Positions 3,461 to 58,026 are shown, counted from the stretch's first letter. The stretch: 64,000 bases of DNA from Minisyncoccia bacterium (GCA_041752275.1 JBGSHK010000008.1:70543-134542); one strand, 5' to 3'. Notes: generated from the letters alone by a model not told the origin. Program-made: numbers and translations.

Positions 3461-3520
3461 GGATCGAACCTACGACCAATCGCTTAACAGGCGACTGCTC
3501 TACCGCTGAGCTACAGAGGA
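3449..3520 (-). tRNA. tRNA-Asn (anticodon GTT). CCA is not encoded.
   Basis: Reverse complement reads TCCTCTG-TA-GCTC-AGCGGTA-GAGC-A-GTCGC-CTGTTAA-GCGAT-TGGTC-GTAGG-TTCGATC-CCTAC-CGGAGGA-G. Gives a 7-bp acceptor stem, D-, anticodon- and T-arms, and a GTT anticodon. Confidence 0.85.
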
Positions 3521-4843: not shown

Positions 4844-6745
4844 ATGTTTATGTTTTTAAATACTAATAAAAAAAAATTTAAAATCAACAAAAAAATAGAC
4901 ACCACCCTACCTATAGGTTTTTTAAAGAAAGATAATGACTACTCAATATTTTGCAAATCATCCAATACGCCAGAGAATATATTTATTATAAAAAATAAAA
5001 AAGGGAATATAAATGAATTCTCAATAAATAAAGAAAAATTAAATATAAAAAATAAGCTTTTTAGGAGTAAATTAGATATAGATAAAATTGATAATGTTAT
5101 TTATTCTATAAATAAAAAAAAAGAAATCATAAACTTTATATATAAAGAAGATAAAAAGCAAAAACTTTATTTAGCAATCAAGAAAAATAAAAACGATTGG
5201 ATAATTCAAAATCAAGTTTTAGATATACAAGAGAGGGGTGGTTTAGTGTCTGACTATATCAACAATAAAAAATATTATATGTATTTTGGTGAATCAAATA
5301 TAAGTACAGCCAATACCTTAAATCTAAGTAAGTGGAATATTAGTCAAGATCCTGTTCTTAAGCCTAGACCAGGTTTTTTTGATAAAAGCAATTTAAAATT
5401 TCTAGCAACTAAAGTTATCGACAGAGGAATATTGGTTTTTTATGACGCTTCATATAAAGATAAAATAAGTAAAAAATTGAAAATACAAATAGGTTTAGCG
5501 ATGTTTTCTTTAAGTGATCCCAATAAAATAATCTGGAGATCTGATGATGCAATTTTTGAAAATGAAATATCATATGAAAAAGATTTTGAAGTAAAGGGTA
5601 TTATATTTGATCAAGATAATTTTACTATTTATTGGTATTCAAAAAAAACTGGTATATTGAGTGTTACTTTAAATTTACCTTTTAACAATAGTTTGAAGTT
5701 AGAATCATTTAAGAATCTAGAAAAGCATGATAATAATCCAATTATTTCACCGAATGATAACCATTCATTATCAACACAAAAGTGGCTATTAAATGGTACT
5801 TTTAATCCAACAGCTATTAATATTGATGAAAAAATTCATTTATTATTTCGTGCTGTTGGAGAAGATGGTATATCAAGAATTGGTTATTCTGAAAGTGTAG
5901 ATGGAGTTAATTTTGCAAACATTCATCCAAAACCTGTTTTTTCTTTAAAAAAATCTCACTTTGGAAATGGTCATATTAAAAATAAATATGACCCTGTGCT
6001 ATACGAATCTGGTGGTAGTTGGGGAGGTTGTGAAGATCCTAGACTTACAAAGATAGGTGACACTATATATATGATATTTAATGCTTTTGACGGTTGGGAT
6101 TTTATAAGGGTTGCATATACTTCCATAAAAGAGAAAGATTTTATAGATAAAAGATGGAATTGGGATAGACCTAGGCTAATTTCACCTCAAGGTGAGATAA
6201 ATAAAAATTGGGTTATATTCCCAGAAAAAATTAATGGGAAATTTGCAGTTTTACATAGCCTTACACCTAATATACAAATAGATTATTTAAAAAACTTAGA
6301 AGATCTAGAAATAGGTAAATCAAAAATAAAAAGTAAATATGAAAGAAAATTTAAATCAAAATCGTGGGATACTTGGGTACGTGGAGTAGGGCCAGCTCCA
6401 TTAAAAACACCTGAAGGTTGGTTAGTTTTTTATCATGCTGTCACAGCTGATGAAACCCATAAGTATAAACTTGGTGTTTTACTTTTAGATTTAAATGATC
6501 CTACAAAAATAATTTCAAGGGCAACTGCACCTATATTGACTCCTGACATGTGGTATGAAAATGATTCAAAGCCGGGTATAGTATATGCTTGCGGGGCCAT
6601 CATAAAAAAAGATATGTTATATATTTATTATGGCGGTGGTGATAAACATGTTTGTGTTGCCACCTCATCATTAAAAGAATTTATAGACAATTTAAAAAAT
6701 AGTAAAAATCAAACACCATCAATAAAAAAAGTGATATTGTCCTAA
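4844..6745 (+). CDS. GH130-family beta-mannoside phosphorylase/glycosidase-like protein. Degenerate N-terminal GH130-like half plus a complete C-terminal GH130 domain.
   Basis: GGCEDPRLTKIGDTIYMIFNAFDG catalytic-region motif. C-terminal block (LVFYHA...LLLDLNDPTKII) repeated in weaker form near the N-terminus (ILVFYDA...FSLSDPNKII). Confidence 0.6.
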   Translation: MFMFLNTNKKKFKINKKIDTTLPIGFLKKDNDYSIFCKSSNTPENIFIIKNKKGNINEFSINKEKLNIKNKLFRSKLDIDKIDNVIYSINKKKEIINFIYKEDKKQKLYLAIKKNKNDWIIQNQVLDIQERGGLVSDYINNKKYYMYFGESNISTANTLNLSKWNISQDPVLKPRPGFFDKSNLKFLATKVIDRGILVFYDASYKDKISKKLKIQIGLAMFSLSDPNKIIWRSDDAIFENEISYEKDFEVKGIIFDQDNFTIYWYSKKTGILSVTLNLPFNNSLKLESFKNLEKHDNNPIISPNDNHSLSTQKWLLNGTFNPTAINIDEKIHLLFRAVGEDGISRIGYSESVDGVNFANIHPKPVFSLKKSHFGNGHIKNKYDPVLYESGGSWGGCEDPRLTKIGDTIYMIFNAFDGWDFIRVAYTSIKEKDFIDKRWNWDRPRLISPQGEINKNWVIFPEKINGKFAVLHSLTPNIQIDYLKNLEDLEIGKSKIKSKYERKFKSKSWDTWVRGVGPAPLKTPEGWLVFYHAVTADETHKYKLGVLLLDLNDPTKIISRATAPILTPDMWYENDSKPGIVYACGAIIKKDMLYIYYGGGDKHVCVATSSLKEFIDNLKNSKNQTPSIKKVILS

Positions 6746-6762
6746 TTTATTAAAATAAAAAA

Positions 6763-8676
6763 ATGTTTACAGTTAAAAAATCTTTACATAATCCATTATT
6801 ATCACCAAACACAAATGATCCATGGGAGGCAAAGGCTGTTTTTAATTGGTGTCCTGTTAAAGATGGTTTAATAACTCATTATGTCTATAGAGCTATGTCT
6901 TCTCATGAATCATATTTTAATAATACAATAAGTATTTCATCGATCGGGTACACATCAAGTGTAAACGATATTGATTTTTCAGAAACAAAACAGCTTATTG
7001 CCCCAGAATATGATTGGGAAAAATTTGGTTGTGAAGATCCGAGAGTTACAAAAATTGATGATAAATTTTATATTTTTTATACAGCATTATCAAATTACCC
7101 ATTTGATTCCAATAGTATAAAGATTGCCGTGGCTGTAACCAAAGATTTTAAAACTATTGAGGAAAAACATTTGGTCACACCGTTTAATGCTAAAGCTATG
7201 GCATTATTCCCAGAAAAAATAAATGGTAAATATGTTGTTGTGTTATCAGTTAATACTGATATGCCACCAGCTAAGATTTGTTTTGCTGAATTTGATAACA
7301 TAGAAGATATTTGGAATCAAAAATATTGGCAAAAATGGTACAAAGAATTGGATAAACATAGTATAAACATAAGTCGTTCCGACAAAGATCATGTTGAGGT
7401 TGGGGCTGTGCCTTTAAAAACAGATAAAGGTTGGCTACTTGTTTATAGTCATATTGAAAATTATTTTAGAGACAATAATCCATATCCCCGAGTTTTTGGT
7501 ATTGAAGCCTTACTGCTAGATTTAAATGATCCAAAAAAAATAATAGGCATAACGAATTGGCCCATTATTGTACCAAATGAAGTTTATGAAAAAAACGGAC
7601 AATTTCCAGATATAGTTTTTCCTTCAGGTGCATCTATTGATAAAGAAAATTTAAATATTTACTACGGTGCAAGTGATACATTTTGTTGTAAGGCTACTAC
7701 AAATTTACAAAATCTTTTGAACAGTATGTCAGAAAAATCTATGACAGAATATGTTTTGAGATATAAAGACAATCCTATACTTAAACCGAGACCAAATATT
7801 GCTTGGGAGGCACATGGTGTATTTAATCCAGCCGTTCTTCAGGTTGGAAATAAAATAAGCATACTTTACAGAGCGATGTCGGATGACGACACCTCATATG
7901 TTGGATTTGCATCTACTACAGATGGATACAATATTATAAAAAGAGAAGATCAACCAATATATATACCAAGAGAGTCATTTGAAAATAAACGTCGACCTGG
8001 AAACTCAGGTTGTGAAGATCCACGTTTAACCCTTATCGATAAAAAAGTTTATATGTGTTATACCGCATACGATGGAGAAAACCCACCTAGAGTAGCTCTC
8101 ACATTTATAACTTTAAAAGATTTTGAAAAAAATAATTGGAATTGGAGTAAACCTATATTGGTTTCACCTGAAAATAAAGATGATAAAGACGCCTGTGTTT
8201 TTCCTGAAAAAATTAATGGAAAATATTTGATATTACATAGAATAAACGGAGATATTTGTGCTGATTTTGTAAAGTCATTAGATTTTCCTGATGGTCCATT
8301 AAAAACATCTACACCTATAATGTTACCAAGAAAGGGTATGTGGGATGCTGAAAAAATTGGTATTTCATCTCCGCCTATAAAAACAAAAAAAGGCTGGCTA
8401 TTGCTTTATCATGGTGTGTCATCTCAAAATCATATTTATAGAGTTGGCGTAGCTCTACTCGATTTAAAAAATCCATTGAAAGTTTTATCAAGAACAAGCG
8501 CACCAATATTTGAACCTGAAACATACTATGAAAAGGTTGGAATAATACCAAATGTAGTTTTTCCTTGCGGTGCTTGTATTAGAGATGAAAAAATATTTAT
8601 TTATTATGGCGGTGCTGACGATGTGGTTGGTGTGGCTACTGTTTCAGTTGAAAAAGTTTTACAGTCTTTATTATAA
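6763..8676 (+). CDS. Tandem double GH130-family glycoside phosphorylase-like protein.
   Basis: Two complete repeats, each with GCEDPR(V/L)T...Y..YTA and (L)LLDL(N/K)(D/N)P.K motifs. Confidence 0.65.
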   Translation: MFTVKKSLHNPLLSPNTNDPWEAKAVFNWCPVKDGLITHYVYRAMSSHESYFNNTISISSIGYTSSVNDIDFSETKQLIAPEYDWEKFGCEDPRVTKIDDKFYIFYTALSNYPFDSNSIKIAVAVTKDFKTIEEKHLVTPFNAKAMALFPEKINGKYVVVLSVNTDMPPAKICFAEFDNIEDIWNQKYWQKWYKELDKHSINISRSDKDHVEVGAVPLKTDKGWLLVYSHIENYFRDNNPYPRVFGIEALLLDLNDPKKIIGITNWPIIVPNEVYEKNGQFPDIVFPSGASIDKENLNIYYGASDTFCCKATTNLQNLLNSMSEKSMTEYVLRYKDNPILKPRPNIAWEAHGVFNPAVLQVGNKISILYRAMSDDDTSYVGFASTTDGYNIIKREDQPIYIPRESFENKRRPGNSGCEDPRLTLIDKKVYMCYTAYDGENPPRVALTFITLKDFEKNNWNWSKPILVSPENKDDKDACVFPEKINGKYLILHRINGDICADFVKSLDFPDGPLKTSTPIMLPRKGMWDAEKIGISSPPIKTKKGWLLLYHGVSSQNHIYRVGVALLDLKNPLKVLSRTSAPIFEPETYYEKVGIIPNVVFPCGACIRDEKIFIYYGGADDVVGVATVSVEKVLQSLL

Positions 8677-13727: not shown

Positions 13728-16010
13728 ATGCGACTAAAATCAATTCACATCATCGGTTATAAATCCTTTGCAAAAAAGACTGATTTAGTTTTTAATACAC
13801 CTATCACTTCGATCGTAGGACCAAACGGATCTGGAAAATCAAACGTAGTAGAAGCTTTTCGTTTTGTTTTAGGCGAGCAATCTTTGAGATCTATGCGAGG
13901 TAAAAAGGGTGAGGATATGATTTTTAACGGTGGACGAGATCTTTCTAAGTCTAACCGTGCGTCAGTTAAAATAGTTTTCGACAATAGACTACTTGAAGAA
14001 AACGCTGAGTTCAATAGACTTTTTAACACACATAGCTTTGATGAGGTAACTATAGAAAGAGCTGTAAACAGAGATGGAACAAATGAGTATAGTATAAACG
14101 GCAACTCAGTCCGTCTTCGTGACATCATAGAGCTTTTAGCTGAGGCTAACATTGGTTCATCAGGACATCACATCATCTCTCAAGGTGAAGCAGATAGACT
14201 TCTATCATCATCAAACAAAGATAGAAAAGAAATGATAGAGGAAGCACTTGGTCTTAAACTTTATCAATACAGAAAAGAAGAATCACAAAAAAGACTTGTT
14301 AAAACCGAAGAGCATATGAAAGAGGTTGAGTCTTTAAGACGTGAGCTTGCACCACACATTAGATTTTTAAAAAAGCAGATTGAGAAAATAGAAAAAGCAC
14401 GAGAGATCAGAGATGAATTAAAAAATCTGTACAAAGAGTATTTTGCATATGAAAAAGTTTTTCTTGATTCAGAGAAAAATGATATTAAAGAGTCTCGTAT
14501 ATCTCCAGAGCAAGAGTTGTCAAGTCTTGATAGTAAGTTGACAGAGGTAAAAAAAATATTGGCTCAAAATCAAACATCAACAGAGTTTACAAATGAGTTG
14601 TTTGAACTAGAGGGTGAACTTAAAAATATTCGTTTTAATAAAGAAGAACTATCTCGTTCTATGGGACGCTTTGAAGGTGAGATAAACTATATAAATAAAA
14701 ACATAGATAAAAGAAAGTTAGATCTTGAAAATAAAGACAATACAGATATAAAAGTTTCATTTTTCGAAATAAAAAACCTTATAAATAAAATAAAAACTGT
14801 TTTAGGTGATATAAAATCAGGAGTGTACAAAGATGAGTCTGAAATAAAACAAGTATCAAATGATCTTATAAACGAGTGTGAATCTTATGTAAAATCAAAA
14901 AATAATGAAGGAGAAAAGGTTGATTTTGAAACTGACTATAATGAAATAGATCGTATAAAACTTTTGATTGTAAATATAGAAGATGACATTAAGGCTTTAA
15001 ACGATAAAGAGGTTAATATTTTAGAAAAATATACAGAAACAAAAAATAAAATAGAATCATTTAAAAATGAAAATGTTGAAGCTGAAAAAGACTTGTTAAA
15101 AGTTATGTCTCGTAAACACGAAATACAGTCAGAGTTGGATAAACTAAAAGTTCGTGAAATCGCCTTTACAGAAAGAAATGCAGAATACGAAAGAGATATG
15201 ATGGAGGCTACAGCAATTATTGGTGTTGAGGCTATAAGATTTGATGATATACAAGCTCATGATTTTGATAAACAAAAACAACATGATAGAAAGTATCAAG
15301 TTGAAAAGTTCAAGATAAGACTTGAAGAGCTTGGTGGTGCAGGTGATGAGTTGGTTGTTAGGGAATATAATGAAGTGAATGAAAGAGATGAATTTTTACT
15401 AAAAGAGATGGAAGACTTGACTAAGTCCATGCAAGATCTGGAACAGCTTATAGCTGAAGTTATTGAACAAATAAATAATCTTTTCAATGAAGGTGTTAAA
15501 AAAATAAACCTACAGTTCTCAACATTTTTCAAACAAATGTTTGGAGGAGGAGAGGCAAGACTTGTTGTTACTGAAGAAAAGAAAAGAAAGAAAAGAATAA
15601 CAGATATAGATGATGAGGATATGGAAGAGGAAGTTGATGAAAATGAAACTAAAGAGTTTGGTATAGATGTGTTTGTTTCTCTTCCTCATAAAAAACTAAA
15701 GGGACTGTCTATGCTTTCAGGTGGTGAAAGAGCTCTTACTTCTATAGCGTTGCTGTTTGCTATGAGTCAGGTAAATCCACCACCGTTTATAATACTTGAT
15801 GAAACTGATGCGGCACTTGATGAGGCTAACTCAAGGCGTTATGGTGACATGATAGAGCTTTTGTCTAAGCACTCTGAACTTATACTAGTAACTCATAACA
15901 GAGAGACTATGAGTAGGGCAGGAGTGCTGTACGGAGTTACTATGGGTAGTGTTGGGTATTCACAGTTGTTATCGATAGGTTTTGAGGAGGCGTCACTTAA
16001 TGCTAAATAG
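13728..16010 (+). CDS. SMC-family chromosome partition ATPase, short form (760 aa).
   Basis: N-terminal FKSFAKKT...IVGPNGSGKSNVVEAFRFVLGEQS. C-terminal LSGGERALTSIALLFA...FIILDETDAALD. Confidence 0.65.
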   Translation: MRLKSIHIIGYKSFAKKTDLVFNTPITSIVGPNGSGKSNVVEAFRFVLGEQSLRSMRGKKGEDMIFNGGRDLSKSNRASVKIVFDNRLLEENAEFNRLFNTHSFDEVTIERAVNRDGTNEYSINGNSVRLRDIIELLAEANIGSSGHHIISQGEADRLLSSSNKDRKEMIEEALGLKLYQYRKEESQKRLVKTEEHMKEVESLRRELAPHIRFLKKQIEKIEKAREIRDELKNLYKEYFAYEKVFLDSEKNDIKESRISPEQELSSLDSKLTEVKKILAQNQTSTEFTNELFELEGELKNIRFNKEELSRSMGRFEGEINYINKNIDKRKLDLENKDNTDIKVSFFEIKNLINKIKTVLGDIKSGVYKDESEIKQVSNDLINECESYVKSKNNEGEKVDFETDYNEIDRIKLLIVNIEDDIKALNDKEVNILEKYTETKNKIESFKNENVEAEKDLLKVMSRKHEIQSELDKLKVREIAFTERNAEYERDMMEATAIIGVEAIRFDDIQAHDFDKQKQHDRKYQVEKFKIRLEELGGAGDELVVREYNEVNERDEFLLKEMEDLTKSMQDLEQLIAEVIEQINNLFNEGVKKINLQFSTFFKQMFGGGEARLVVTEEKKRKKRITDIDDEDMEEEVDENETKEFGIDVFVSLPHKKLKGLSMLSGGERALTSIALLFAMSQVNPPPFIILDETDAALDEANSRRYGDMIELLSKHSELILVTHNRETMSRAGVLYGVTMGSVGYSQLLSIGFEEASLNAK

Positions 16011-25754: not shown

Positions 25755-26342
25755 TTAGGATGCTACAAGACTTTGACTTGGAGACCATTCTTCTCCGACA
25801 ATTATTTGAGCTCCTTTATATACCTCACTAGCTTCAACTGTGTTAGGGCTAGGATTTAAATACGATAATGCTAAAATTACCTGATTAGGCAAAATTTCAT
25901 TTTTATTTAAAATAAAGGTTTCAATAATTGAACCTTTATCAGTTAAAAAATTTCCAATATAAACAACTTGACCACGATAGTTAAAAGCTAGCATTTGTCC
26001 TAATCGAAGTCTGAAAATCATTTTTTCTGTAACGAGTACTTTTTTGGTTTCTGCACTGGTTTTTATTTCTTTAATCGCAGGTTGATTCCGACCATTAAGG
26101 CTGGATTCGAAAAGGTTAAAACTTGAACCTTCTTTTATTTCAAATGATTTAAGGTGAATAAAATGATCTCCCGGTTTTTCTCTGTGTCTTACTTTACTTA
26201 ATGTAAGGGACACGTCTATTTTTATTCCTATAGAAACCCTTGTTTTTAATTTTCCTTTTCCATCCTCAATTAATTTGACCGTTGTAAATCTCAATGGATT
26301 TGTTTTCTTTACTGCAACTTTAGCTCGTCTCATGTTATGCAT
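25755..26342 (-). CDS. Hypothetical protein.
   Basis: 195-aa ORF with no recognised motif. Confidence 0.35.
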   Translation of the reverse strand: MHNMRRAKVAVKKTNPLRFTTVKLIEDGKGKLKTRVSIGIKIDVSLTLSKVRHREKPGDHFIHLKSFEIKEGSSFNLFESSLNGRNQPAIKEIKTSAETKKVLVTEKMIFRLRLGQMLAFNYRGQVVYIGNFLTDKGSIIETFILNKNEILPNQVILALSYLNPSPNTVEASEVYKGAQIIVGEEWSPSQSLVAS

Positions 26343-26433: not shown

Positions 26434-27282
26434 CTAAAATCCTGTAAAATCACTTTCATTTTTACCTTCAACAACTATTCTTTCTATCTTGTCCGCACTC
26501 ATTTTTTTTATCTTAACTCTTTTACCATCTTTGTTTATATAAAACACTCCAGGCCATATACTATAGGCTTGATATTTTTTGTATATATCTGAGATAGAGT
26601 CTTTGTCAGGAAATATTTCACCTTCAGATTTTTGTATCATTTTTGTATATGTTGCACTATCGTGATTTTGTTCTATGTATTTTATTTCATCGTTCTCATA
26701 TTTTTCCAAAGTTTCTATAAGCATATCAGCTGAAATTTTTGCCAACATTTCAGACAGTTCTTTTGTAGAACAAGGCCATATATTTTCATCGATAGAATAT
26801 TTCTTTTGCAAGACTATAGGACCATGATCCATAAGTTCGTCCACTTGTATAATAGTCACACCTGTATGACGCTGATCTTCTAAAATCGTGTTTTGTAACG
26901 GGGCCGGACCACGGAAACGCGGTAACAGAGAAGGGTGTATATTTATAAAATCAATAGTTTTTAAATCAAGTAATACTTGAGGTAAAATCTTTCCATAATC
27001 AGCAACAACACAAACGGTATTTTCTTTTATTATTTCTTTAAACTTTTGCAATGAATCTTCCGTTTTAAGTTTTTCAGGTTGAATGTATGGAATATTATAC
27101 TCCGTAGCTAGTTTTTTTATAGGTCCAGCTTCTATGATCTGATGACGTCCCACAGGTTTGTCTGGGGAGGTTATGATATATGATGGGATTTTTTTTTGCG
27201 CGAGTAAATTTTTTAAAACAGCAAGACCGAAAAAACCTGTTGAAAAAAATATAAAATTGTTTTTTTGCTCTGTATTATTCAT
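26434..27282 (-). CDS. fmt: Methionyl-tRNA formyltransferase.
   Basis: NIHPSLLPRFRGPAPLQNTIL motif. Adjacent to def. Confidence 0.85.
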   Translation of the reverse strand: MNNTEQKNNFIFFSTGFFGLAVLKNLLAQKKIPSYIITSPDKPVGRHQIIEAGPIKKLATEYNIPYIQPEKLKTEDSLQKFKEIIKENTVCVVADYGKILPQVLLDLKTIDFINIHPSLLPRFRGPAPLQNTILEDQRHTGVTIIQVDELMDHGPIVLQKKYSIDENIWPCSTKELSEMLAKISADMLIETLEKYENDEIKYIEQNHDSATYTKMIQKSEGEIFPDKDSISDIYKKYQAYSIWPGVFYINKDGKRVKIKKMSADKIERIVVEGKNESDFTGF

Positions 27283-27790
27283 GATCGTTTGGATCTAGAT
27301 ATTCTATATCTTTAGCTTTGTCTATAAAAAGTTCTCCTTTGAGATGGTCACATTCATGTTGAAATATATGAGCCAAAAGTCCACCAGCACCACGTGATTG
27401 TTTTGTTCCATTTTCATCATAGTATTCTAGAGTGACATTAGTTGATCTAAGTACTCGACCATAAAACCAACGAACAGAAAGACAACCTTCACCGTCAAGC
27501 CATTTTTTTGTTTTAGAAAATTTTACTATTTTTGGATTTATACAAACTATATCTTTATCGGCCATTTTTTCTCCTTTAACAAGGACTCTTTTTGAAACTA
27601 TAAATATTTGCAGCGGTAGATTTACCTGAGGTGCGGCCAATCCAACACCGTCGCCAATAGAGGCTAAAGTCTCTTTCATATCTGCTATGATTTTTTGTAT
27701 TTTAGGATTTTTAATATCATCTATCGGCACCAGGTTTGCAGGTGTGTCGAGTATAGGATTTCCTTTTTCTATAATAGTAAGAATAGACAT
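27275..27790 (-). CDS. def: Peptide deformylase.
   Basis: GVGLAAPQV, EGCLSV and HECDHL motifs. Confidence 0.9.
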   Translation of the reverse strand: MSILTIIEKGNPILDTPANLVPIDDIKNPKIQKIIADMKETLASIGDGVGLAAPQVNLPLQIFIVSKRVLVKGEKMADKDIVCINPKIVKFSKTKKWLDGEGCLSVRWFYGRVLRSTNVTLEYYDENGTKQSRGAGGLLAHIFQHECDHLKGELFIDKAKDIEYLDPNDHE

Positions 27791-27802
27791 ATATTGATAT
27801 TA

Positions 27803-29434
27803 CTACAGTAGTTTTCTACTATCAACCTCAATTTTTATATATTGAGGCAGGGATTTTAGATAATATATAATCGGATTTTTCAAATAATCTTTTTTACCTA
27901 TGAGTATATGTATGGTTGTTTTTATCTTGTCGTCAGCTTCAAAAAAGGTTGTATAATGTTTTAAATATTCTTTTATTGTTTCTAAAAGTTTTATACTTTT
28001 TTCTGTTGGAATGGATATTTGTATATGAGTAGAGTAAGGGGGTAGGTTTAACTCTTTTAATTCATCTTCATTTTTTATTTTATTTATATTATTTTCTTGG
28101 AGATTTTTCCAAAAAAGATTTTCTATATCCCGAGTTTGTATTATGAAGTTTTTATTTGTTTGATGTGATAGTAATGATATTTTTTTATACACCTCATACT
28201 CCATAGAATGAAGTGGTATCGCAAATAAACTTTCAAAAGATACAACTGCTATATTATCAAACTTGAAATCAAGGCCAATACTTTGATTTATTAAATAATC
28301 ATTACCTATAAAGATTGTGGACTTTTTCTTGTCTTTATTGTTTATATATTCGTTTAAAGTTTTTTTAACCTGGCTTTTAGTGTTGTTTTCATTGTCTATT
28401 TTTATTATGTCTATGTCAAATTCTTTTTGTATTTCTTTATATATAACTTCAATAGACGCTCCAAGTGGTAAAAGATTTTCATTTGAGCAAATAGGGCAGG
28501 GTGCATCTATTTTTATAGGGACATGATTATTTTTACATTTAAAAACATAAGCATTTCCTTTAAGATCTATTTCCAAATCTTCAAAACACTTAGGGCAACG
28601 CATCACATGCTTACAGTCAGGACATATAGTTTTAGGTGCATAACCTTTTTTCAGGGTATATAGTAAAAATGATTCGTTATTTTTCTCACTTTTTTTGAGA
28701 GCTGAAAAAAGTTCAGGTGAAATAAGGTTTAGTCTGTCTTTATATACTTCATTGTCTAAATTTTTCTTTTTTATAGCAGTTCTGTTTTGTGAACTTTGTT
28801 CTATTATATATAAGTTTTTGTTTTTTAGCTCAAGCTTTGTTTCTATTTCGTTTAGTTTTATTTTTCGTCTTGTACAGTATTCTTTTATAAAATATCTATA
28901 ATCAAACTTTTTGAATAAATGACGATAGTATTCTGACTCGGCTGAGTATATATTTATAGTTTTTATTGTCTCAGTATCTATTTTATACAGGTCTATAGGT
29001 AATATTTTATTTTCTAAAGAATTCGCTTGTAAATATTCTTGTACAGGAAAAATATTTATTTCTTTGGTATATGATTTTGTTATCTCTATACTATTGGATA
29101 AATTTTCTAGTATCTTTTTAGGAATCATTTCTGAAAATACTTCGCCAAATGGTTTTATATAATAGTTAGCAGTTTTAAGTACGGAAAAAATAAAATCTTG
29201 ACTGAAAAGATTCAGCCTGTTTATTTTTTCAATTTTTCTTATTGTAAAGTTTTGCGATTTTATAAACTCTTTGGCTTCATTTACAGAAATAACAGAATCA
29301 ACTACCACCCAGATCTTTCTGTTTTGTAGTGGTGCTTCTATTATATCGGCAATCTCAACATCTTCATTTATCCAATAGGTTAATGAATCAGAAAAAGTTT
29401 TTTTTAGTATGGGGTAGACTTTGATACATTTCAT
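27803..29434 (-). CDS. PriA-like primosomal protein homolog with a Cys4-Cys4 zinc-binding region and no recognisable helicase ATPase motifs. Start uncertain, with alternative Met codons at 29464 and 29497.
   Basis: CPDCKHVMRCPKC...FKCKNNH...CPICS zinc-ribbon pattern typical of PriA. Conserved priA-def-fmt gene order. I found no GxxxxGK[ST] or DExH motif. Confidence 0.45.
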   Translation of the reverse strand: MKCIKVYPILKKTFSDSLTYWINEDVEIADIIEAPLQNRKIWVVVDSVISVNEAKEFIKSQNFTIRKIEKINRLNLFSQDFIFSVLKTANYYIKPFGEVFSEMIPKKILENLSNSIEITKSYTKEINIFPVQEYLQANSLENKILPIDLYKIDTETIKTINIYSAESEYYRHLFKKFDYRYFIKEYCTRRKIKLNEIETKLELKNKNLYIIEQSSQNRTAIKKKNLDNEVYKDRLNLISPELFSALKKSEKNNESFLLYTLKKGYAPKTICPDCKHVMRCPKCFEDLEIDLKGNAYVFKCKNNHVPIKIDAPCPICSNENLLPLGASIEVIYKEIQKEFDIDIIKIDNENNTKSQVKKTLNEYINNKDKKKSTIFIGNDYLINQSIGLDFKFDNIAVVSFESLFAIPLHSMEYEVYKKISLLSHQTNKNFIIQTRDIENLFWKNLQENNINKIKNEDELKELNLPPYSTHIQISIPTEKSIKLLETIKEYLKHYTTFFEADDKIKTTIHILIGKKDYLKNPIIYYLKSLPQYIKIEVDSRKLL

Positions 29435-29464
29435 AATAGGAATATATGTATTATAATAACACAT

Positions 29465-30997
29465 ATGAAACCCGAAGAAGATTATATAGAAACACATAGT
29501 ACAGATTCAAGTATTTTTAAAGTTTATCCAAAGCAAGTTATTTTTCCGAAAGACGAAATAGAAATAGTTGATATTATAAAGCATGCAAAGGTAAATAAAA
29601 GGCATATATCAGTGCGTGCCGGTGGAAGTTGCATGGATGGAGGATCGTTGAACAATGATATTATAATGAATTTAACCAGGCATTTTACTGATATAAAAAT
29701 AAATCAATACGCCAAGTCAGTTGATATTGATATGGGTGTTTACTATAGAGATCTTGAACATGAAGTGTCAAAACTTGGACTTATGTTTGCACCATATACA
29801 TCGTCAAAAGACGTTTGCGGTATAGGTGGTATGCTTGGAAACAACGCGTCAGGTGAGAAAAGTATACGCTTCGGTGCAACTATAGATAACGTTTTATCTG
29901 CTCGTGTTTTTTTGTCCGACGGTAACTTGTATAACTTTGAAGAAATAACTGAAGATCAATGTTTAAAGTTGTCAGAGCAAAAAACTTTTATTGGAAATAT
30001 TCATAAAGAAATACGGGAAATATATAAAAATTATGCAAATGATTATGTAGAAGCTATTGGCAATGTCATCAAATCAGCTTCGGGCTATAAACTTGATAAG
30101 ATATTTAATAAAGAAAAAAATACTTGGAACTTGGCAAAGATTTTTATAGGAGCTCAGTCAACTTTGGGTATTATTCATTCTGCTAAACTTAAACTTGTAG
30201 ATATGCCAACTCACACAAGACTTATTGCCATACCTGTCAACTCCCTTGCCTCATTGCCACTCTTGTTGCAAAAAATAATGCAAAATGATCCAGAAAGTGT
30301 TGAAACATTTGATGTAAACACTTACATATCAGCAAAACCATTTTTACCTGAGGATACTTTGAAAATACAAAAATATTTTGCAAACGGTGAGCATCTCATA
30401 ATCCTGGCTCAGTTTGACGAAGACGATTTGGCTCATAAAGTTTTTTTGGAGTTGAAAGAAGTAGAACCTAAAACAGAATATATATATGATGATTCTGTTG
30501 CTACAAGTTTATGGAAAGTTAGACGATCATCTTTTGGTGTGATGAGAGATAGGGTTTATGATAAAGTGACAAAAAAAGCTGTGCCTTGTATAGAAGATAT
30601 TATTGTTCCTATAGATAAGTTTGATGAGTTCATACCAAGACTTATGGAGATCTTAAATCTGAACAATATAGAATATGGATATCACGGTCATATAGGGGAT
30701 GGTGCTATAAGAGTTATACCTATCATAGACTTTGAACATCATAAAAAAGCAATAGAGAAAATAGTGTTGTTATGTGATCAGGTTTTTGATCTCGTGAAAG
30801 AGATGGGTGGAAACATGTCCGCGGACCACAGTGATGGAATAATAAGAACACCTTTTTTGAAAGAGTTTTATGGTGTTGATCTTTATGAGGGGGTGGTTGT
30901 GGGGATTAAAAATCTGTTTGATCCAGATAGGATTTTTAATCCAGGGAAGAAGGTGGGGTTGAGGAAGGAGGATTTGGAAGGGTTTGGGTTGAGATAA
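29465..30997 (+). CDS. FAD-linked oxidase (GlcD/D-lactate dehydrogenase-like).
   Basis: FAD-binding PCMH-type N-domain VRAGGSCMDGGSLNNDIIMNL. About 500 aa, typical of the family. Confidence 0.7.
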   Translation: MKPEEDYIETHSTDSSIFKVYPKQVIFPKDEIEIVDIIKHAKVNKRHISVRAGGSCMDGGSLNNDIIMNLTRHFTDIKINQYAKSVDIDMGVYYRDLEHEVSKLGLMFAPYTSSKDVCGIGGMLGNNASGEKSIRFGATIDNVLSARVFLSDGNLYNFEEITEDQCLKLSEQKTFIGNIHKEIREIYKNYANDYVEAIGNVIKSASGYKLDKIFNKEKNTWNLAKIFIGAQSTLGIIHSAKLKLVDMPTHTRLIAIPVNSLASLPLLLQKIMQNDPESVETFDVNTYISAKPFLPEDTLKIQKYFANGEHLIILAQFDEDDLAHKVFLELKEVEPKTEYIYDDSVATSLWKVRRSSFGVMRDRVYDKVTKKAVPCIEDIIVPIDKFDEFIPRLMEILNLNNIEYGYHGHIGDGAIRVIPIIDFEHHKKAIEKIVLLCDQVFDLVKEMGGNMSADHSDGIIRTPFLKEFYGVDLYEGVVVGIKNLFDPDRIFNPGKKVGLRKEDLEGFGLR

Positions 30998-50269: not shown

Positions 50270-51532
50270 ATGAAAGAAATAATCACACATTCACCAATTC
50301 AGGTCAGACCAATGGAGAATATTACCCATGAAAGATTACTTAGCTTACTTTCGGCTGAATCAGCTAATAATCTTTTAGAAGCACTCACGGAACAAGACAG
50401 AACACGTTTAGATGTGTGGAATACTTATCTTAAAAATGAGACTTTCGATGATCTATCTGAAGAGGGTAGAGATAAATTAATAACAGAATTAATTGACACC
50501 CGATACTCAATACTTGCAGATAATTATGATATTAAAATTGATAAAAGATTAGTTTTAAGAGACGATAAAGAAAACTACATTCATACATTAAAAGAAATAA
50601 TCTCTAGATTGTTTGACGAAAAAGTTTTAATAGTTAAACCTGAAAATTTTCATATATGTAAAAATTGTTCTTTTATTATTGCACCCAAAGATGCGAAAAT
50701 AACCGCCTGTCCCGACTGTTCATCTACAGATTTAAGCACAGTAGAAAAGAACGGAATGTTTTTAAATGTTGATACAGGTAAAATGTCTGAATTTGAAACC
50801 AGAGGGTTTGATGTGCTATCTGCAGAAGGGAGAAATAGAGTTAAATCTGCTATGTTGATGATGCCACTTGTAGTTAGTGTTGCAAAACATAGAGAACATG
50901 GTGTTTCTTTAGAAGAATTTGGTGTTAGTCCAGAATTTAAACTAGACCCAAAGATTTCTATAGCACTATCTGGAGCAGTTGCCAGAGAGGCGGGGATTGG
51001 AGAAGTCGGAATTTCTATACAAGGTATTGATTCATTAAAAAACAATGTTCCCTTTACTCTTTTATTAGACCCTGATACACAAACTAAATTTCTTAATATA
51101 GGAATGGTCCCTACTTTTTCAACCCCTGAATTAGAAAAATATAGCTCTTTATTTTATTTTCCTTTTTTAGCTTTGGTAATTGCCGGTAAATCAAAAAAAA
51201 TGAGTAGTGATGAAATTCAATTACAGTTAAAGCAATTTGAAAAAACAAGGACAAAGCTATCATCCTGTGTAGAGGCGCTGAGAAAAACAACAGAGACCTA
51301 TGCTGCAGGAAATATAAGTCTTACAAAAGATGAAATGAATAGACTTTCAGATACTCTTAAAGATGATTTAAAAGATGGTAAATTTAAACACGCTGTTGAA
51401 GCCATGCATAGTTTTATTTTTGATTGGCTTTCTCGTGTATATATAAATCAATGTAAAGATTCTGGGTCTAGAGCAGATCCTGAACTGCTTCAATACATAG
51501 AAAAGATTCTTTCGCCAATTTTTAAAAAATAG
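50270..51532 (+). CDS. Hypothetical protein with an internal CxxC...CxxC zinc ribbon.
   Basis: CKNCSF...CPDCSS. No other recognised domain. Confidence 0.4.
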   Translation: MKEIITHSPIQVRPMENITHERLLSLLSAESANNLLEALTEQDRTRLDVWNTYLKNETFDDLSEEGRDKLITELIDTRYSILADNYDIKIDKRLVLRDDKENYIHTLKEIISRLFDEKVLIVKPENFHICKNCSFIIAPKDAKITACPDCSSTDLSTVEKNGMFLNVDTGKMSEFETRGFDVLSAEGRNRVKSAMLMMPLVVSVAKHREHGVSLEEFGVSPEFKLDPKISIALSGAVAREAGIGEVGISIQGIDSLKNNVPFTLLLDPDTQTKFLNIGMVPTFSTPELEKYSSLFYFPFLALVIAGKSKKMSSDEIQLQLKQFEKTRTKLSSCVEALRKTTETYAAGNISLTKDEMNRLSDTLKDDLKDGKFKHAVEAMHSFIFDWLSRVYINQCKDSGSRADPELLQYIEKILSPIFKK

Positions 51533-51542
51533 TAAAGTTATT

Positions 51543-52292
51543 TTAAACAGATTTTTTTAAATATTCTAAATCTTCCGGTGTGTTAATGGTTAATATCTCA
51601 TCTTTGTCAACGATTTCAAAAGAAACATTTTTGAATTGATTGATTGCTACTTCAATTATCCTGCTAACTGCATATTCACCATTTGGCAGTTGTGGTATCA
51701 AATGTTTATTGTTCTCAAAATAATATTTATTTAAACAAATTATTCCTGTACCAGATAAGTGTCCATATTCACCAATTTCTTCTTTATTTACAGGTCTGAC
51801 ACCTAAAACTCTTTTTTTATCTGTTAGATATCCAACCTTATGTAACCCTTCATTAAACTCTCTTGTTAAAAGTAAACTAACCATAGCTTTTGTGCTTGTG
51901 TGTGTTTTAATTAACCTCTCTAATGTTTGAGGTTTAAGAAACCAGCCATTATCAGCAGGTAAAACTAAAACTAGATCAGTATTATTTGAAATTTTATTCA
52001 TTCCTGAAACAACAGCACCTAAAGTACCGTCTAAAATTTCCTGTATGGCAAATAAAATATTTGACAAATGATTTAAATTTTTTTTTACATGGTCTTCAAC
52101 ATCTTTAGATTTATAACCAATTACAATTATAATATTTTCAATTTTTAATTTGCTTACCGTATTAATAATTTTAACTAGAATAGATTGATTCTTAATTGTT
52201 GTAAGTGGTTTAGGAATTTGCCCACCCAATCTAGTACCTTTTCCTGCGGCCATTATTATTACAGATGTTTTTTTATCATTAATCATAGACAT
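51543..52292 (-). CDS. IspD/TarI/LicC-like cytidylyltransferase (NTP_transferase fold).
   Basis: N-terminal VIIMAAGKGTRLGGQIPKPL matches the AAG.G.R...PKQ signature. Overlaps the upstream gene by 14 nt, so probably one operon. Confidence 0.6.
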   Translation of the reverse strand: MSMINDKKTSVIIMAAGKGTRLGGQIPKPLTTIKNQSILVKIINTVSKLKIENIIIVIGYKSKDVEDHVKKNLNHLSNILFAIQEILDGTLGAVVSGMNKISNNTDLVLVLPADNGWFLKPQTLERLIKTHTSTKAMVSLLLTREFNEGLHKVGYLTDKKRVLGVRPVNKEEIGEYGHLSGTGIICLNKYYFENNKHLIPQLPNGEYAVSRIIEVAINQFKNVSFEIVDKDEILTINTPEDLEYLKKSV

Positions 52293-54594
52293 TATTCAAT
52301 AATACAGAAATATTTCTATTTAATAAAGTTGCAATTTCTTCTATCTTTGATTCTTTTGATGATTTTTCTAAATTGTTAATTATCTTAGAATACAAGTTTA
52401 ACATATCAAAAATTGCCATAATAATCGACTCTTTTGCAACTTCTTTATTGTAAATTTTCTCAACTTTTTTAATAATAAAATCTAATTCTTTATTTAAAAT
52501 ATTTGAATTTACTAAAATGATTCTTGATAAGAATTTTCCAATATCACAGCTATGTTTTCCTAATGCAAGCATTGGGTCAAGAAGGGTAAATTTATTTTCC
52601 AATTTAGAATAAATTATATTTTCAGGTTTAAAGTCACCAAAAATAATATCACACTTATTAAGTAGTTCAGGTTTTTCTTCTAGAATAGAATTTAGTTTAT
52701 TAATAATTTCTTTTAATTTATTTACTTCATCAGTATTACTTAAACCTAAATAATTTGGTAGGGATAATAATTTAAAATTTCTGGCACAATGATAATTTAA
52801 ATCATCAGTCTCAATTAATAAATTAGAGTCTACAGGGATATTTGTCAACAAATGGTGGGTATTTTTAAGTACGTCTAGAGTCTCAGAAACCATAGATATT
52901 GTTTCTGGGTTATATGATTTTATAATATTATCTAAGACTTCACCCTCAACTTGATCCATAAGTATCGCTGTACCATCTTCAATTAACTTAATATTTTTTG
53001 GTACATTAACACCGATTTTTGAAAGTTCAAAAAGCTGACTAGCATGTGTATTTATTCTTTTAATATCTCTAACCTGTTCTTTGGAGTCACTAAAATACAT
53101 TTTAAGTATCTTTCGGGTCACGTTCGACAATACAACTTTACTTTTTTCAGGAGTACCTATTCTGAATACTTTATCACTTAAATCGAGACCATACTGACCG
53201 TAATTTATATTAAGAATTTTCTCTTCCTCTTTGAGGATAATTTCCATTGTGTTTAAAATCACCAACCATTCCTGATCAATTATTTTTTCTTGACCACCAT
53301 TTAATATTTTTCTTGATAATTCTAACGCTTTTATTATTTCCTTGTCTTTTGATTTATCTAACCACCGATCCAGATCATTCATATCTATATTATTAATATT
53401 CCTAATATGTAAAAGATAGAAAACCGATATAGAAAATAATTTTGCAAATCTTCTCATCTGCTCATCTGAATTATTTAATCTTGAAATCTTCTTTTCACAT
53501 TCTCTGTAGTTTATTAAACTAGCCCTGTAACAATCATACTTAATATCTTGCACACTAACATCAATTTTAATTTTCTTTTTATCTATTGAAAAGAAGTGTT
53601 GATTTACTCCATGTGCTAAAATTGGACCTCGATTGAATCTCGAGATTTTTTCACTTAGTAAATCACTTAAATTATTAATACTTAAATCTAATTTAGTATC
53701 AAATTGTTCCTTAAACCTAAGTTGTAAATCACTTAATTCGGAAAAATGTGCTAGATACCCATCTGATAGAATATATAAATCGATATCGGAACAACCATTC
53801 TTAAAGAAGTGTGTGATTTGTGAACTACCCCAGATAAACATGTAAGTATCACTACCTAGAAGACCTATAACTCGCTCTCTCGCTATAAAACTTAAAAGAA
53901 CATTTCTAATAGGATTAGAATAATAAGTATCGATTCTGTGATCACCTTCATTCATTTCAATTGAAAATATAACACCTTGCCCATACAGATCTTTGTATTC
54001 CTGAATAGATTTAGACAGTTTAGATACATCAAGAGCACTATCATTTTTGGAATAAAATAAACTAATCGGCAAACCTGTTTTAACTAGTACATCTAAACCA
54101 TCAAAACAGTATCTCGGTTTCATTAGATCTTGGAGTTCAAAGTTCATTGATTCAGCGGGTTTGCAATTTCCTTCAGACACTAAAAATTTTATTGAATCAT
54201 TAAAGTCTTCATGAATCCAATCTGAACCAAGTCCAAAAACTGGGGAGAATAAGCTTACTCCTTTTAAATACTTATACTTAGATAAATCAATTTTTTGTAT
54301 AATTAAAGACGAGAACGAATAAGCTATTATAACAAATGACTTTTCAGAACTTTCTAGACTCTGTAGTAATAGTTCGATATTTTTGACTGTGTTTGTGACT
54401 GAAAATTCACCAATCTCTTCATATAGTCCAGGATGTCGGTATTCGTGAACAGTAAGACCTTTACCTCTAAGATCTGTCATGAATAAAAAATCTTTTTTTC
54501 TACCAGGAACACCTGGCAAGAAAACATATTCCACAGTCTCATTGTTTTTTTTCATATTTGAATATATTCTACTACGAAAATTACTACTTAGCAA
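52279..54594 (-). CDS. Three-domain protein: alpha/beta-hydrolase-like N-domain, minimal nucleotidyltransferase (pol-beta superfamily) domain, and a C-terminal APH/choline-kinase-like phosphotransferase.
   Basis: IAYSFSS nucleophile-elbow-like segment. NTase motif GSSQITHFFKNGCSDIDLYIL. Kinase Brenner motif IIFGDFKPENII and downstream LLDP. Confidence 0.55.
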   Translation of the reverse strand: MLSSNFRSRIYSNMKKNNETVEYVFLPGVPGRKKDFLFMTDLRGKGLTVHEYRHPGLYEEIGEFSVTNTVKNIELLLQSLESSEKSFVIIAYSFSSLIIQKIDLSKYKYLKGVSLFSPVFGLGSDWIHEDFNDSIKFLVSEGNCKPAESMNFELQDLMKPRYCFDGLDVLVKTGLPISLFYSKNDSALDVSKLSKSIQEYKDLYGQGVIFSIEMNEGDHRIDTYYSNPIRNVLLSFIARERVIGLLGSDTYMFIWGSSQITHFFKNGCSDIDLYILSDGYLAHFSELSDLQLRFKEQFDTKLDLSINNLSDLLSEKISRFNRGPILAHGVNQHFFSIDKKKIKIDVSVQDIKYDCYRASLINYRECEKKISRLNNSDEQMRRFAKLFSISVFYLLHIRNINNIDMNDLDRWLDKSKDKEIIKALELSRKILNGGQEKIIDQEWLVILNTMEIILKEEEKILNINYGQYGLDLSDKVFRIGTPEKSKVVLSNVTRKILKMYFSDSKEQVRDIKRINTHASQLFELSKIGVNVPKNIKLIEDGTAILMDQVEGEVLDNIIKSYNPETISMVSETLDVLKNTHHLLTNIPVDSNLLIETDDLNYHCARNFKLLSLPNYLGLSNTDEVNKLKEIINKLNSILEEKPELLNKCDIIFGDFKPENIIYSKLENKFTLLDPMLALGKHSCDIGKFLSRIILVNSNILNKELDFIIKKVEKIYNKEVAKESIIMAIFDMLNLYSKIINNLEKSSKESKIEEIATLLNRNISVLLNNVYD

Positions 54595-55348: not shown

Positions 55349-56392
55349 ATGTTCACAGACTTACTTTCACTTATATTTAACAGAAACCTATCGACAAGAA
55401 AAATAGAATTTGCTTTTATAGTCCACCCCAGAAACACATATGACATTTTTCGTAAATACAAATTACTAAAAATATTTCCCAAAAAGGTTGTTGATTTATT
55501 TCTACTAATAATGTGGCCGACATACGGGGGAAGTATAAAAATTGATCAAGGTGAAAAAGGTACTAAGTGGGGAGCAATTATAATAAGTCCTTTGACAGGT
55601 AAACAGATGTTAAGATACAGAAAACTAGCTGCAAACACTGTGTTTATGGCTAGTAAGCTGGCTAAAATATATGGTTCAAAAGTTATAGGATTAGGTGCAC
55701 TTACGTCAGTTGTCACAGACGGGGGAATATATGTGAGTGATAAACTAAAAGGTTTACATTTTACATCAGGTAACGGCTTAACTGCAGCAACAACATCAAA
55801 CGATATTTTAAGAATAATAAAAGATAAAAATATTACAGGACCGATATCTGTTATTGGTGCCACTGGATCAATAGGAAAGGGTATAACAAAAGTTTTGGAT
55901 GAAGGTTGTAAAAATGATTTGATATTAATCGGAAAAAATAAAGAAAGAACAATTGGTCTGGCTCATGAGTTGTCAAGAAATAATGTTATTTGTACAACTG
56001 ACATAGAAGAAAATAACAAAGCTGAAATAGTTATTGTTACAACAAGTGCAAATGGAGCAATAATTGATCATCATTTATTAAAAAATGCTAAAATAATATA
56101 TGATATAACTCAGCCAAAAAATACTCCTGATCACATAATGGAAGGTGATGCTATATCATATATAGATGGTGGCTTAATACAGTTACCTGAAAATATCAGA
56201 ATAGGTATGGACATAAGTTTACCAAAAGGAATTGCTTTTTCTTGTCTTTCTGAAACCCTGCTTATAGCCATATCAGAAAAATATTACCTAAAATCAGAAA
56301 AAGATTTAAAAATTGAAAACATTAAAGAATTGTCTAAATTAGCAATGGAAAATAATTTTAATTCTTATTTAATCCAAAATGGAAATAAATAA
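55349..56392 (+). CDS. NAD(P)-binding oxidoreductase, acyl-ACP reductase (AAR)-like / amino-acid dehydrogenase-like.
   Basis: Rossmann motif VIGATGSIGKGITKVL at mid-protein. AAR-like length and layout. Confidence 0.4.
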   Translation: MFTDLLSLIFNRNLSTRKIEFAFIVHPRNTYDIFRKYKLLKIFPKKVVDLFLLIMWPTYGGSIKIDQGEKGTKWGAIIISPLTGKQMLRYRKLAANTVFMASKLAKIYGSKVIGLGALTSVVTDGGIYVSDKLKGLHFTSGNGLTAATTSNDILRIIKDKNITGPISVIGATGSIGKGITKVLDEGCKNDLILIGKNKERTIGLAHELSRNNVICTTDIEENNKAEIVIVTTSANGAIIDHHLLKNAKIIYDITQPKNTPDHIMEGDAISYIDGGLIQLPENIRIGMDISLPKGIAFSCLSETLLIAISEKYYLKSEKDLKIENIKELSKLAMENNFNSYLIQNGNK

Positions 56393-58025: not shown

Positions 58026-58026
58026 T

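Follow-up and report, generated by a model that had tools for sequence, protein, structure and literature searches.

A shortened, motif-less PriA homologue at the priA-def-fmt locus of a Parcubacteria-type genome

Introduction

According to published reviews, the helicase motifs of the primosomal protein PriA are conserved throughout the bacteria except in Deinococcus-Thermus (PMC5778457, PMC4504706). PriA of Deinococcus radiodurans shows neither ATPase nor helicase activity, but its affinity for single-stranded DNA (ssDNA) and for forks is near normal and it interacts with DnaB (PMC4504706). In Escherichia coli, the product of the priA300 allele (K230R) is devoid of ATPase, helicase and translocase activities; the mutant is near wild type, restart proceeds in vitro via PriA-PriB, and the scaffold function is separable from catalysis (PMC5778457). 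Here we describe a PriA homologue encoded on the minus strand of a 64,000-nt stretch of DNA (Minisyncoccia bacterium, GCA_041752275.1, JBGSHK010000008.1:70543-134542; the whole stretch is referred to below as the window, with positions counted from its first letter). The gene is complete, extends over 27803..29434 with a TAG stop codon at 27803-27805, and encodes a shrunken protein of 543 amino acid (aa) residues in which no helicase motif is found.

[quoted passage not shown] The aromatic-rich loop of the E. coli protein crosslinks to the fork junction and is seen wedged there by cryo-electron microscopy (cryo-EM) (PMC5175346, PMC10175261). Canonical PriA, as exemplified by the E. coli and Klebsiella pneumoniae proteins (4NL4, 6DGD, 8FAK), possesses motifs I, II, III, V and VI, an HD1 of about 210 aa and eight Cys, whereas the window protein has none of these motifs, an HD1 of about 100 aa and a His as one of its zinc ligands.

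The closest precedent is the D. radiodurans pseudohelicase, which is likewise without the catalytic residues in motifs I and II (PMC4504706). In Deinococcus-Thermus, however, the P-loop persists, with GRT in place of GKT, and the core of the helicase keeps its full size, whereas the window protein has suffered deletion of the P-loop segment together with about 90 aa of lobe 1, and of motif VI. The E. coli priA300 and K230A/D proteins are comparable in being ATPase-null and yet assembling the primosome (PMC5778457), but they are laboratory point mutants with an intact fold, and priA300 supports neither the PriA-PriC pathway nor Mu transposition; the motor of the window protein, by contrast, is truncated and remodelled. 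What is new here is a more extreme, and probably independent, PriA pseudohelicase inside a very large, apparently undescribed motif-less clade. No principle is overturned, since the dispensability of the PriA helicase has already been established in E. coli and Deinococcus.

Loss of the helicase motifs

An earlier note on this DNA, made by eye from the sequence, had found neither a Walker A motif nor a DExH box in the product, and its observation was confirmed by pattern, profile and residue-level comparison alike. A regular-expression scan of the whole protein found no [AG]xxxxGK[ST], DExH, [ST]AT or GRxGR, nor any GR dipeptide. The NCBIfam priA profile TIGR00595 matched with E 1.7e-25 and 89.6 bits against a cutoff of 230.35, so that the equivalog score was not reached; profile positions 149-447 of 509 aligned with residues 223-519 of the 564-aa open reading frame (ORF), corresponding to 202-498 of the 543-aa protein, and the profile stretch with Walker A, motif Ia and DExH was left unmatched. 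No intact but divergent Walker motifs, which the note had allowed for, came to light in this alignment. The PRK05580 and PRK14873 models all scored far below their own cutoffs, and the sole Pfam hit was a marginal match to PriA_3primeBD (PF17764; 21.9 against 22.7 bits), with neither DEAD nor Helicase_C recovered. In phmmer searches of the PDB, the alignments with the K. pneumoniae and E. coli PriA proteins were confined to lobe 2, the Cys-rich region and the first part of the CTD, and the canonical QVSGRAGRAGK was paired with KISLLSHQTNKN of the window protein.

For residue-level comparison, the E. coli PriA sequence was rebuilt from the PDB alignment and aligned by MAFFT with canonical and degenerate relatives. 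In this E. coli-numbered alignment, Walker A (K230) falls inside a deletion, motif II (D320-E-E-H323) is replaced by Y163-S-A-E166, motif III (GSATP) by NEIET and motif V (IGTQMLAKG) by IGNDYLINQ, while motif VI (QVAGRAGR) is reduced to 'LL' and 'SHQ' separated by a 5-aa gap (5-6 aa depending on the alignment). By these alignments the catalytic motifs have not simply diverged: the stretch with the P-loop is missing from the chain and no arginine fingers are left, and the protein is predicted to possess neither DNA-dependent ATPase nor 3'-5' helicase activity.

Retained domains and predicted structure

An AlphaFold2 model built on 38 homologues has a mean predicted local distance difference test (pLDDT) score of 84.1 and a predicted template modelling (pTM) score of 0.82, with a single long low-confidence stretch in the linker at residues 216-232 (pLDDT below 50). 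Foldseek searches of the PDB with this model returned PriA structures as the best nine matches (top 8fak_H, E 1.7e-25, TM 0.69), the next having E > 1e-3. The model shows PriA-like folds for the 3'BD, the segment of the aromatic loop, lobe 2, the CRR and the CTD, all of which are kept. Alignments of the short family (A3), canonical PriAs (A4) and a Parcubacteria family of about 630 aa (A5) were compared as well.

The 3'BD occupies residues 1-112 (29099..29434, minus strand). Its PF17764 match, marginal here, is recorded in many homologues; the domain aligns over its full length along the hhalign chain A3-A5-A4, and its fold matches that of full-length PriA. Residue Y20, the counterpart of E. 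coli Y18, is invariant in every aligned sequence, and E. coli K61 corresponds to R66/K67. With 52% of its positions invariant, the 3'BD exceeds every other domain of the family in conservation, and its pLDDT ranges from roughly 62 to 94 per 10-residue block, mostly 85-94.

The remnant of lobe 1 comprises residues 115-212 (28799..29092, minus strand), as delimited by the hhalign chain, MAFFT and the model, and measures about 98 aa as compared with about 210 in E. coli HD1. Its first element is the strand of motif Ia (INIFP130), whose Pro is invariant even among canonical PriAs, and it harbours the former motif II as 'INIYSAES' and the former motif III as 'KLNEIET'. In the model it forms a compact fold with four strands, three helices and pLDDT 85-97, and its conservation within the family equals that of lobe 2. 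Directly after the former motif II, residues 167-182 (SEYYRHLFKKFDYRYF; 28889..28936, minus strand) take the place of the aromatic-rich loop of PriA and align to E. coli 324-339 with the pairs Y327/Y170, K328/R171, Y335/F177 and R338/R180. Residues S167, E168, Y169, Y170, H172, K175, K176, F177, D178, Y179 and R180 are invariant in the short family, and the invariance of R180 extends through the relatives of 630 aa.

A Lys/Asn-rich linker at residues 213-237 (28724..28798, minus strand), variable in length among relatives and low in model confidence, joins the lobe 1 remnant to the N-terminal part of HD2 (residues 238-267; 28634..28723, minus strand), which aligns to K. pneumoniae PriA from position 418 onwards and was matched by hhalign at 99.5%. 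Inserted in lobe 2 is the CRR, the zinc-binding region (residues 268-320; 28475..28633, minus strand), with C271, C274, C280, C283, C300, H304, C313 and C316 in the spacing CxxC-x5-CxxC-x16-Cx3H-x8-CxxC over residues 271-316. Seven of the Cys align with canonical ligands in columns that are invariant in pseudo and canonical PriAs; the eighth position is His304, at least 90% conserved, and Cx3H replaces the third CxxC in the whole close family and in several intermediates. The region had been described as a PriA-like Cys4+Cys4 domain, and the PriA-like character stands, the composition being Cys4 + Cys3His instead. Two zinc sites are predicted from this arrangement. The C-terminal part of HD2 (residues 321-445; 28100..28474, minus strand), established by phmmer, hhalign and the MAFFT alignment, carries the former motif V as 'IGNDYLINQS' and, in place of motif VI, 'LLSHQ' with the 5-aa deletion. 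The 'IIQTR' strand that follows the former motif VI is conserved, and Q433, T434 and R435 are invariant. The CTD covers residues 446-543 (27806..28099, minus strand) and starts near the invariant P465-P466; both the lobe 2 fold and a PriA CTD are present. The missing winged-helix domain was considered as a special trait of the protein and rejected, as the small canonical PriAs P0048 (Saccharibacteria) and P0041 are also without it.

Reduction of lobe 1 within the family

Profile-profile comparison located the loss of lobe 1. The short family matched canonical PriAs by hhalign at residues 238-489 only (99.5% probability), with no match before residue 238, whereas both the comparison of the short family with the 630-aa family and that of the 630-aa family with canonical PriAs ran end to end at 100%. 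Since the direct profile match fails, residues 115-212 are established as lobe 1 solely via the 630-aa intermediates. These relatives have a lobe 1 of full size with altered motifs: GxTGSGKT is replaced by Q..DEER.A, DEEH by d-k-E-n-S, GSATPS by FGD.lLR, and QvaGRaGR by kiRalt with a deletion. Pipelines annotate their database entries (e.g. P0034, P0093, P0099) as PriA, with PF17764 alone detected. In this family (P0034, P0049-P0167), the former P-loop region has not decayed; in its place stands a new motif, vLQxxDEERxxxYKSLIREEFARxxSVFFCLPT, in which several residues are invariant, and its strong conservation argues that the former ATP site is under constraint for some function.

Both the window protein and its direct relatives, the 630-aa 'primosomal protein N'' family, are devoid of Walker A and B and carry the deletion at motif VI; the window protein has also lost the element at the former P-loop and the beta-3/alpha-3 segment. 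In the short family, the P-loop strand with helix alpha-1 and the beta-3/alpha-3 segment are missing in addition, about 90 aa altogether, which leaves the strand of motif Ia as the first element of the remnant. This further deletion in lobe 1 is specific to the lineage of the window protein. Staged intermediates of the deletion were found in P0030 (642 aa), P0031 (637 aa), P0168 (578 aa) and P0029 (572 aa), giving a length series of about 640, 575 and 543 aa with the window protein at its extreme end. The P0168 locus has the same order of FAD-linked oxidase, shortened priA, def and fmt, and in P0030, situated on a 3.5-kb contig, def is next, followed by an uncharacterised partial ORF. The shared neighbourhood of P0168 and P0030 indicates that shrinkage took place in situ, in the orthologous gene.

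Distribution and taxonomy

A search with P0034 (623 aa, 'primosomal protein N'' [Patescibacteria group bacterium]) retrieved at least 439 clusters of about 630 aa, labelled Patescibacteria, Paceibacterota, Vogelbacteria or Pacebacteria and with PF17764 as their only Pfam record. Near-complete contigs of this family include the 752-kb Ga0453684_0000030. Walker A is absent in 118 of 119 of these relatives and motif VI is present in none of the 119, whereas 10 of the 11 canonical control proteins possess every motif. When 1.84 billion representatives were searched by profile, 13,504 hits resulted, 4,737 of them below 1e-30, a count that includes canonical PriAs; the best 150 of the 13,504 all ranged from 541 to 709 aa, and 146 of them were new, none combining the motifs. 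Walker-A-like regular-expression matches in P0036, P0137, P0177 and P0303 were dismissed as chance, lying at non-homologous positions and accompanied by neither DExH nor motif VI.

The short form makes up a single 50%-identity cluster (P0026) among thousands and occurs in nine metagenome-assembled genomes (MAGs) of GTDB species genomes: four are labelled Candidatus Parcubacteria or Nomurabacteria, one 'uncultured bacterium', and four are third-party assemblies labelled 'Saccharibacteria'. MAGs with the short form include JAYUPL01, JACMMR01, JAYSOO01, CAIZLB01 and CALRFG01. The 'Saccharibacteria' label is doubtful, because PriAs labelled Saccharibacteria or Saccharimonadales elsewhere are of the canonical kind, their motifs intact and both DEAD and Helicase_C domains present. 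The labels also conflict between loci L006-L010 ('uncultured Candidatus Saccharibacteria') and L001-L005 (Candidatus Parcubacteria/Nomurabacteria), and some are probably wrong; protein P0011 is labelled Arenimonas sp. in one source.

The same deletion at motif VI, 5-6 aa depending on the alignment, is common to all motif-less forms aligned, which argues for a single loss within Patescibacteria; judged from these alignments, catalysis was most likely lost once, in the ancestor of a large Parcubacteria/Paceibacteria clade. Phylogenetic distance and the canonical PriAs of Saccharibacteria indicate that this loss was probably independent of the Deinococcus-Thermus case. A literature search of limited coverage found no description of PriA in Patescibacteria, the candidate phyla radiation (CPR) or Parcubacteria, and prior description elsewhere is possible. 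The sole literature co-occurrence, PMC10849945, concerns phylum UBP6 and is not relevant.

Proposed role and alternative explanations

The retained parts of the window protein are the fork-contacting parts of E. coli PriA and the lost parts are its nucleotide-binding elements; we therefore propose an ATP-independent sensor of forks and D-loops that serves as a loading platform. Abandoned forks or D-loops would be recognised without ATP, with the aromatic segment of the lobe 1 remnant placed at the fork junction, and the CRR, lobe 2 and CTD would form the pore holding the lagging-strand template ssDNA. The resulting fork complex could then act as a platform on which the replicative helicase is reloaded, directly or through an adaptor, any unwinding being left to another helicase or not needed. 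By analogy with D. radiodurans PriA, the protein would be expected to bind ssDNA, forks and its cognate DnaB without ATP, and the fork-binding and loading function as a whole is inferred from the E. coli and Deinococcus work (PMC10175261, PMC4504706, PMC5778457). Overall, ATP-independent fork recognition with a helicase-loading scaffold is the best explanation of the data and a likely one, and replisome reloading, with slightly less assurance, would be the role served. Several points weigh against it. The binding of DNA, zinc and partners by Patescibacteria PriA is in every case deduced; the Pfam score of the 3'BD is just under the gathering threshold; the register of the aromatic segment shifts by 1-2 positions between alignments; and the strongly conserved polar surface of the lobe 1 remnant could have a function unrelated to forks. 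In addition, no gene for a loader or adaptor (DnaC/DnaI, DciA, DnaD, PriB, DnaT) was found in the 64-kb window, and the search for a second PriA or a lobe 1 acting in trans covered 64 kb plus flanks of at most 10 kb in relatives.

Against the closest orthologue (91% aa identity, dS 0.50), dN/dS calculated by the Nei-Gojobori method was 0.092 for the whole gene, 0.055 for the 3'BD, 0.091 for the lobe 1 remnant, 0.06-0.09 for lobe 2 and the CRR, and 0.13 for the CTD. Homologues in related genomes, the inspection of which the earlier note had recommended, were full-length, intact and set in the same neighbourhood: 28 protein clusters with 63-91% identity cover the whole length, and in 10 complete copies of the gene, taken from independent loci and assemblies, the ORF is uninterrupted. 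The note had left two readings side by side. The first of them, a degenerate, non-catalytic PriA, is supported, the motor having been deleted and the fork-recognition parts kept under strong purifying selection, and we hold with high confidence that the protein is both catalytically dead and functional. The second, a pseudogenising locus, in which a dead priA remnant would be heading for loss in a reduced genome, would fit the heavy loss of catalytic motifs, a length some 190 aa below that of E. coli PriA, the TIGR00595 score far under the cutoff and a G+C content of 26.5%, somewhat below the 31-34% of neighbouring genes; as far as sequence analysis reaches, it is rejected by the dN/dS of 0.09 at the given dS, equally low in the truncated lobe, and by the intact copies and full-length clusters down to 63% identity. 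The confident compact predicted fold, the invariance of about half of the 3'BD positions and the tight packing of the operon with def and fmt speak in the same sense, which makes decay extremely improbable. Hardly more credible is a cryptic enzyme that still binds and hydrolyses nucleotide via highly divergent or relocated motifs. Such an enzyme could be seen in the invariant charged and aromatic surface of the lobe 1 remnant, with PIDLYK.D and SEYYRHLFKKFDYR, and in an older proposal, cited in PMC5778457, that E. coli PriA has another nucleotide site of weaker kind. However, a glycine-rich loop with Lys-Ser/Thr occurs nowhere in the protein, the strand and helix bearing the P-loop have not diverged but are absent through deletion, the strand of the former motif II is followed by no acidic pair, and both motif VI arginines fall within the 5-aa deletion; a milder change (K to R) already leaves D. 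radiodurans PriA without measurable ATPase (PMC4504706).

Two further explanations accept a working protein and place its function elsewhere. According to the first, the protein has been neofunctionalised as a binder of DNA structures, for instance in handling incoming or recombining DNA or in protecting 3' ends, and restart takes another route. New and strongly conserved surfaces despite the loss of catalysis and of part of lobe 1, the invariant LQxxDEERxxxYKSLIREEFAR at the former P-loop of the 630-aa family, the lack of known partner genes nearby and the location of one 630-aa family member about 2.4 kb upstream of a dprA-like gene could all be cited in its favour. The kept domains, however, coincide exactly with those by which E. 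coli PriA recognises forks and builds its ssDNA pore (PMC10175261), the gene still lies in its ancestral place before def and fmt, restart is known to be supported by PriA without helicase activity (PMC5778457, PMC4504706), and nothing positive points to another role; neofunctionalisation is thus unlikely, albeit the least so of the alternatives. The other explanation, a split or complemented helicase in which the ATPase half of lobe 1 is supplied in trans, or in which a second, canonical PriA does the work and the window copy is an accessory paralogue, gains what room it has from the span of genome read. It is rendered rather improbable by several observations: Pfam scans of the 20 largest other ORFs of the window revealed no second PriA and no other restart or replication gene, and no candidate emerged in the conserved neighbourhoods; the gene holds the orthologous priA position, with graded lengths at the same site; the proteins nearest to a canonical Patescibacteria PriA are all labelled Saccharibacteria/Saccharimonadales and none Parcubacteria; and the lobe 1 remnant is predicted as a closed, confident fold and not as an exposed half-domain.

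Possible implications of the proposed ATP-independent fork recognition

Extended from the single locus to a major branch of the CPR (Parcubacteria/Paceibacteria, hundreds to thousands of clusters), the fork-recognition and scaffold proposal becomes distinctly more tentative, and we put it forward as a possibility somewhat short of an even chance. The sole PriA of this branch would be an obligate ATP-independent fork-recognition adaptor; its 543-aa form would be the smallest natural PriA, a minimal module of 3'BD, aromatic wedge, HD2, CRR and CTD sufficient for restart, and the former ATP site of the 630-aa proteins would have turned into a new interaction surface. If true, restart in a large share of bacterial diversity would operate without PriA motor activity, possibly with a partner set of its own kind that is not yet known. 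The data themselves extend to Parcubacteria, a large group of ultra-small bacteria, a state demonstrated experimentally so far in Deinococcus alone, and constitute a second, apparently independent and much larger natural loss of the PriA motor, in which one lineage further deleted half of lobe 1 and kept every fork-contacting element of the E. coli cryo-EM structure. Such a natural minimal PriA lends itself to structure-function work, and it argues that fork recognition and scaffolding, not unwinding, constitute the indispensable PriA function, a matter that touches on why the motor is kept although E. coli tolerates its loss. Automated annotation as 'primosomal protein N'' or helicase in CPR genomes overstates activity.

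Gene start and operon organization

The minus-strand open frame at 27803-29497 noted earlier is real and counts 564 aa from its first ATG, but the true start is almost certainly the ATG at 29434, giving 543 aa, because homologues and gene calls begin there and the 63-nt extension runs into the divergent gene for a FAD-linked oxidase. MKCIKVYP is the start of all close homologues, and independent gene callers pick the same position; the in-frame upstream extension of 21 codons (29435..29497, minus strand) is absent in most homologues and called genes, overlaps the oxidase start at 29465 and is probably untranslated. The oxidase gene (29465..30997, plus strand) adjoins the 5' end of the PriA-like gene, and the spacer between the two divergent ATGs (29435-29464) measures just 30 bp. 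A TATAAT-like element, 'ttataat', lies in it some 17 nt upstream of the priA ATG, and a Shine-Dalgarno sequence is not obvious; given this distance, the leader would be very short or absent.

The priA-def-fmt order already noted for this locus was borne out, def and fmt lying directly downstream on the same strand with Pfam and NCBIfam matches. The def gene (peptide deformylase; 27275..27790, minus strand) matches PF01327 with E 2.2e-41 and TIGR00079 above the cutoff, and its translation shows the GLAAPQ, EGCLS and HECDH motifs. The fmt gene (methionyl-tRNA formyltransferase; 26434..27282, minus strand) matches PF00551 with E 2.6e-29 and TIGR00460 with E 7.5e-56, the latter at 189.5 bits, slightly under the cutoff of 201.5. 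A gap of 12 nt separates the PriA-like gene from def, and def and fmt overlap by 8 nt. The order of divergent FAD-linked oxidase, shortened priA, def and fmt is conserved among the loci of relatives; by position and sequence, the gene is the positional orthologue of priA in an AT-rich genome of Parcubacteria type (Patescibacteria/CPR).

An extremely AT-rich, low-complexity composition had been ascribed to the N-terminal 290 aa or so, which did not hold up: their G+C content is 27.2% as compared with 25.7% in the rest of the gene and 31.2% in the window, their entropy is near that of neighbouring proteins, and they hold the most conserved, confidently folded domain. Just 3' of fmt lies an ORF of 195 aa without a Pfam match (25755-26342, minus strand). 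It was considered as a conserved fourth gene of the operon and rejected, its counterpart in the closest relative (L011:4720-5202) being essentially unrelated, although the PriA-like genes of the two loci are 91% identical; this slot looks fast-evolving or replaceable.

Other features of the window

No rRNA suitable for taxonomy was detected in the 64-kb window, in which two tRNAs were found. One of them, tRNA-Asn(gtt) at 3448-3520, is overlapped on the opposite strand by the 3' end of a gene for a large serine recombinase of 573 aa (PF00239; 1739-3520), and the overlap may mark the boundary of an integrated mobile element. Two adjacent proteins of about 635 aa belonging to GH130 (mannooligosaccharide phosphorylase), both with long N-terminal extensions, are encoded at 4844-8676 (plus strand). 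Proteins of 771 aa (52279-54594, minus strand) and 420 aa (50270-51532, plus strand) match no Pfam family at E <= 1e-5. Two tandem histidine kinases of 548 aa (56379-59673, plus strand), each with HisKA_7TM, HisKA and HATPase_c domains, look like a recent duplication, and an SMC_N-family protein of 760 aa, short for a bacterial SMC, is encoded at 13728-16010 (plus strand).

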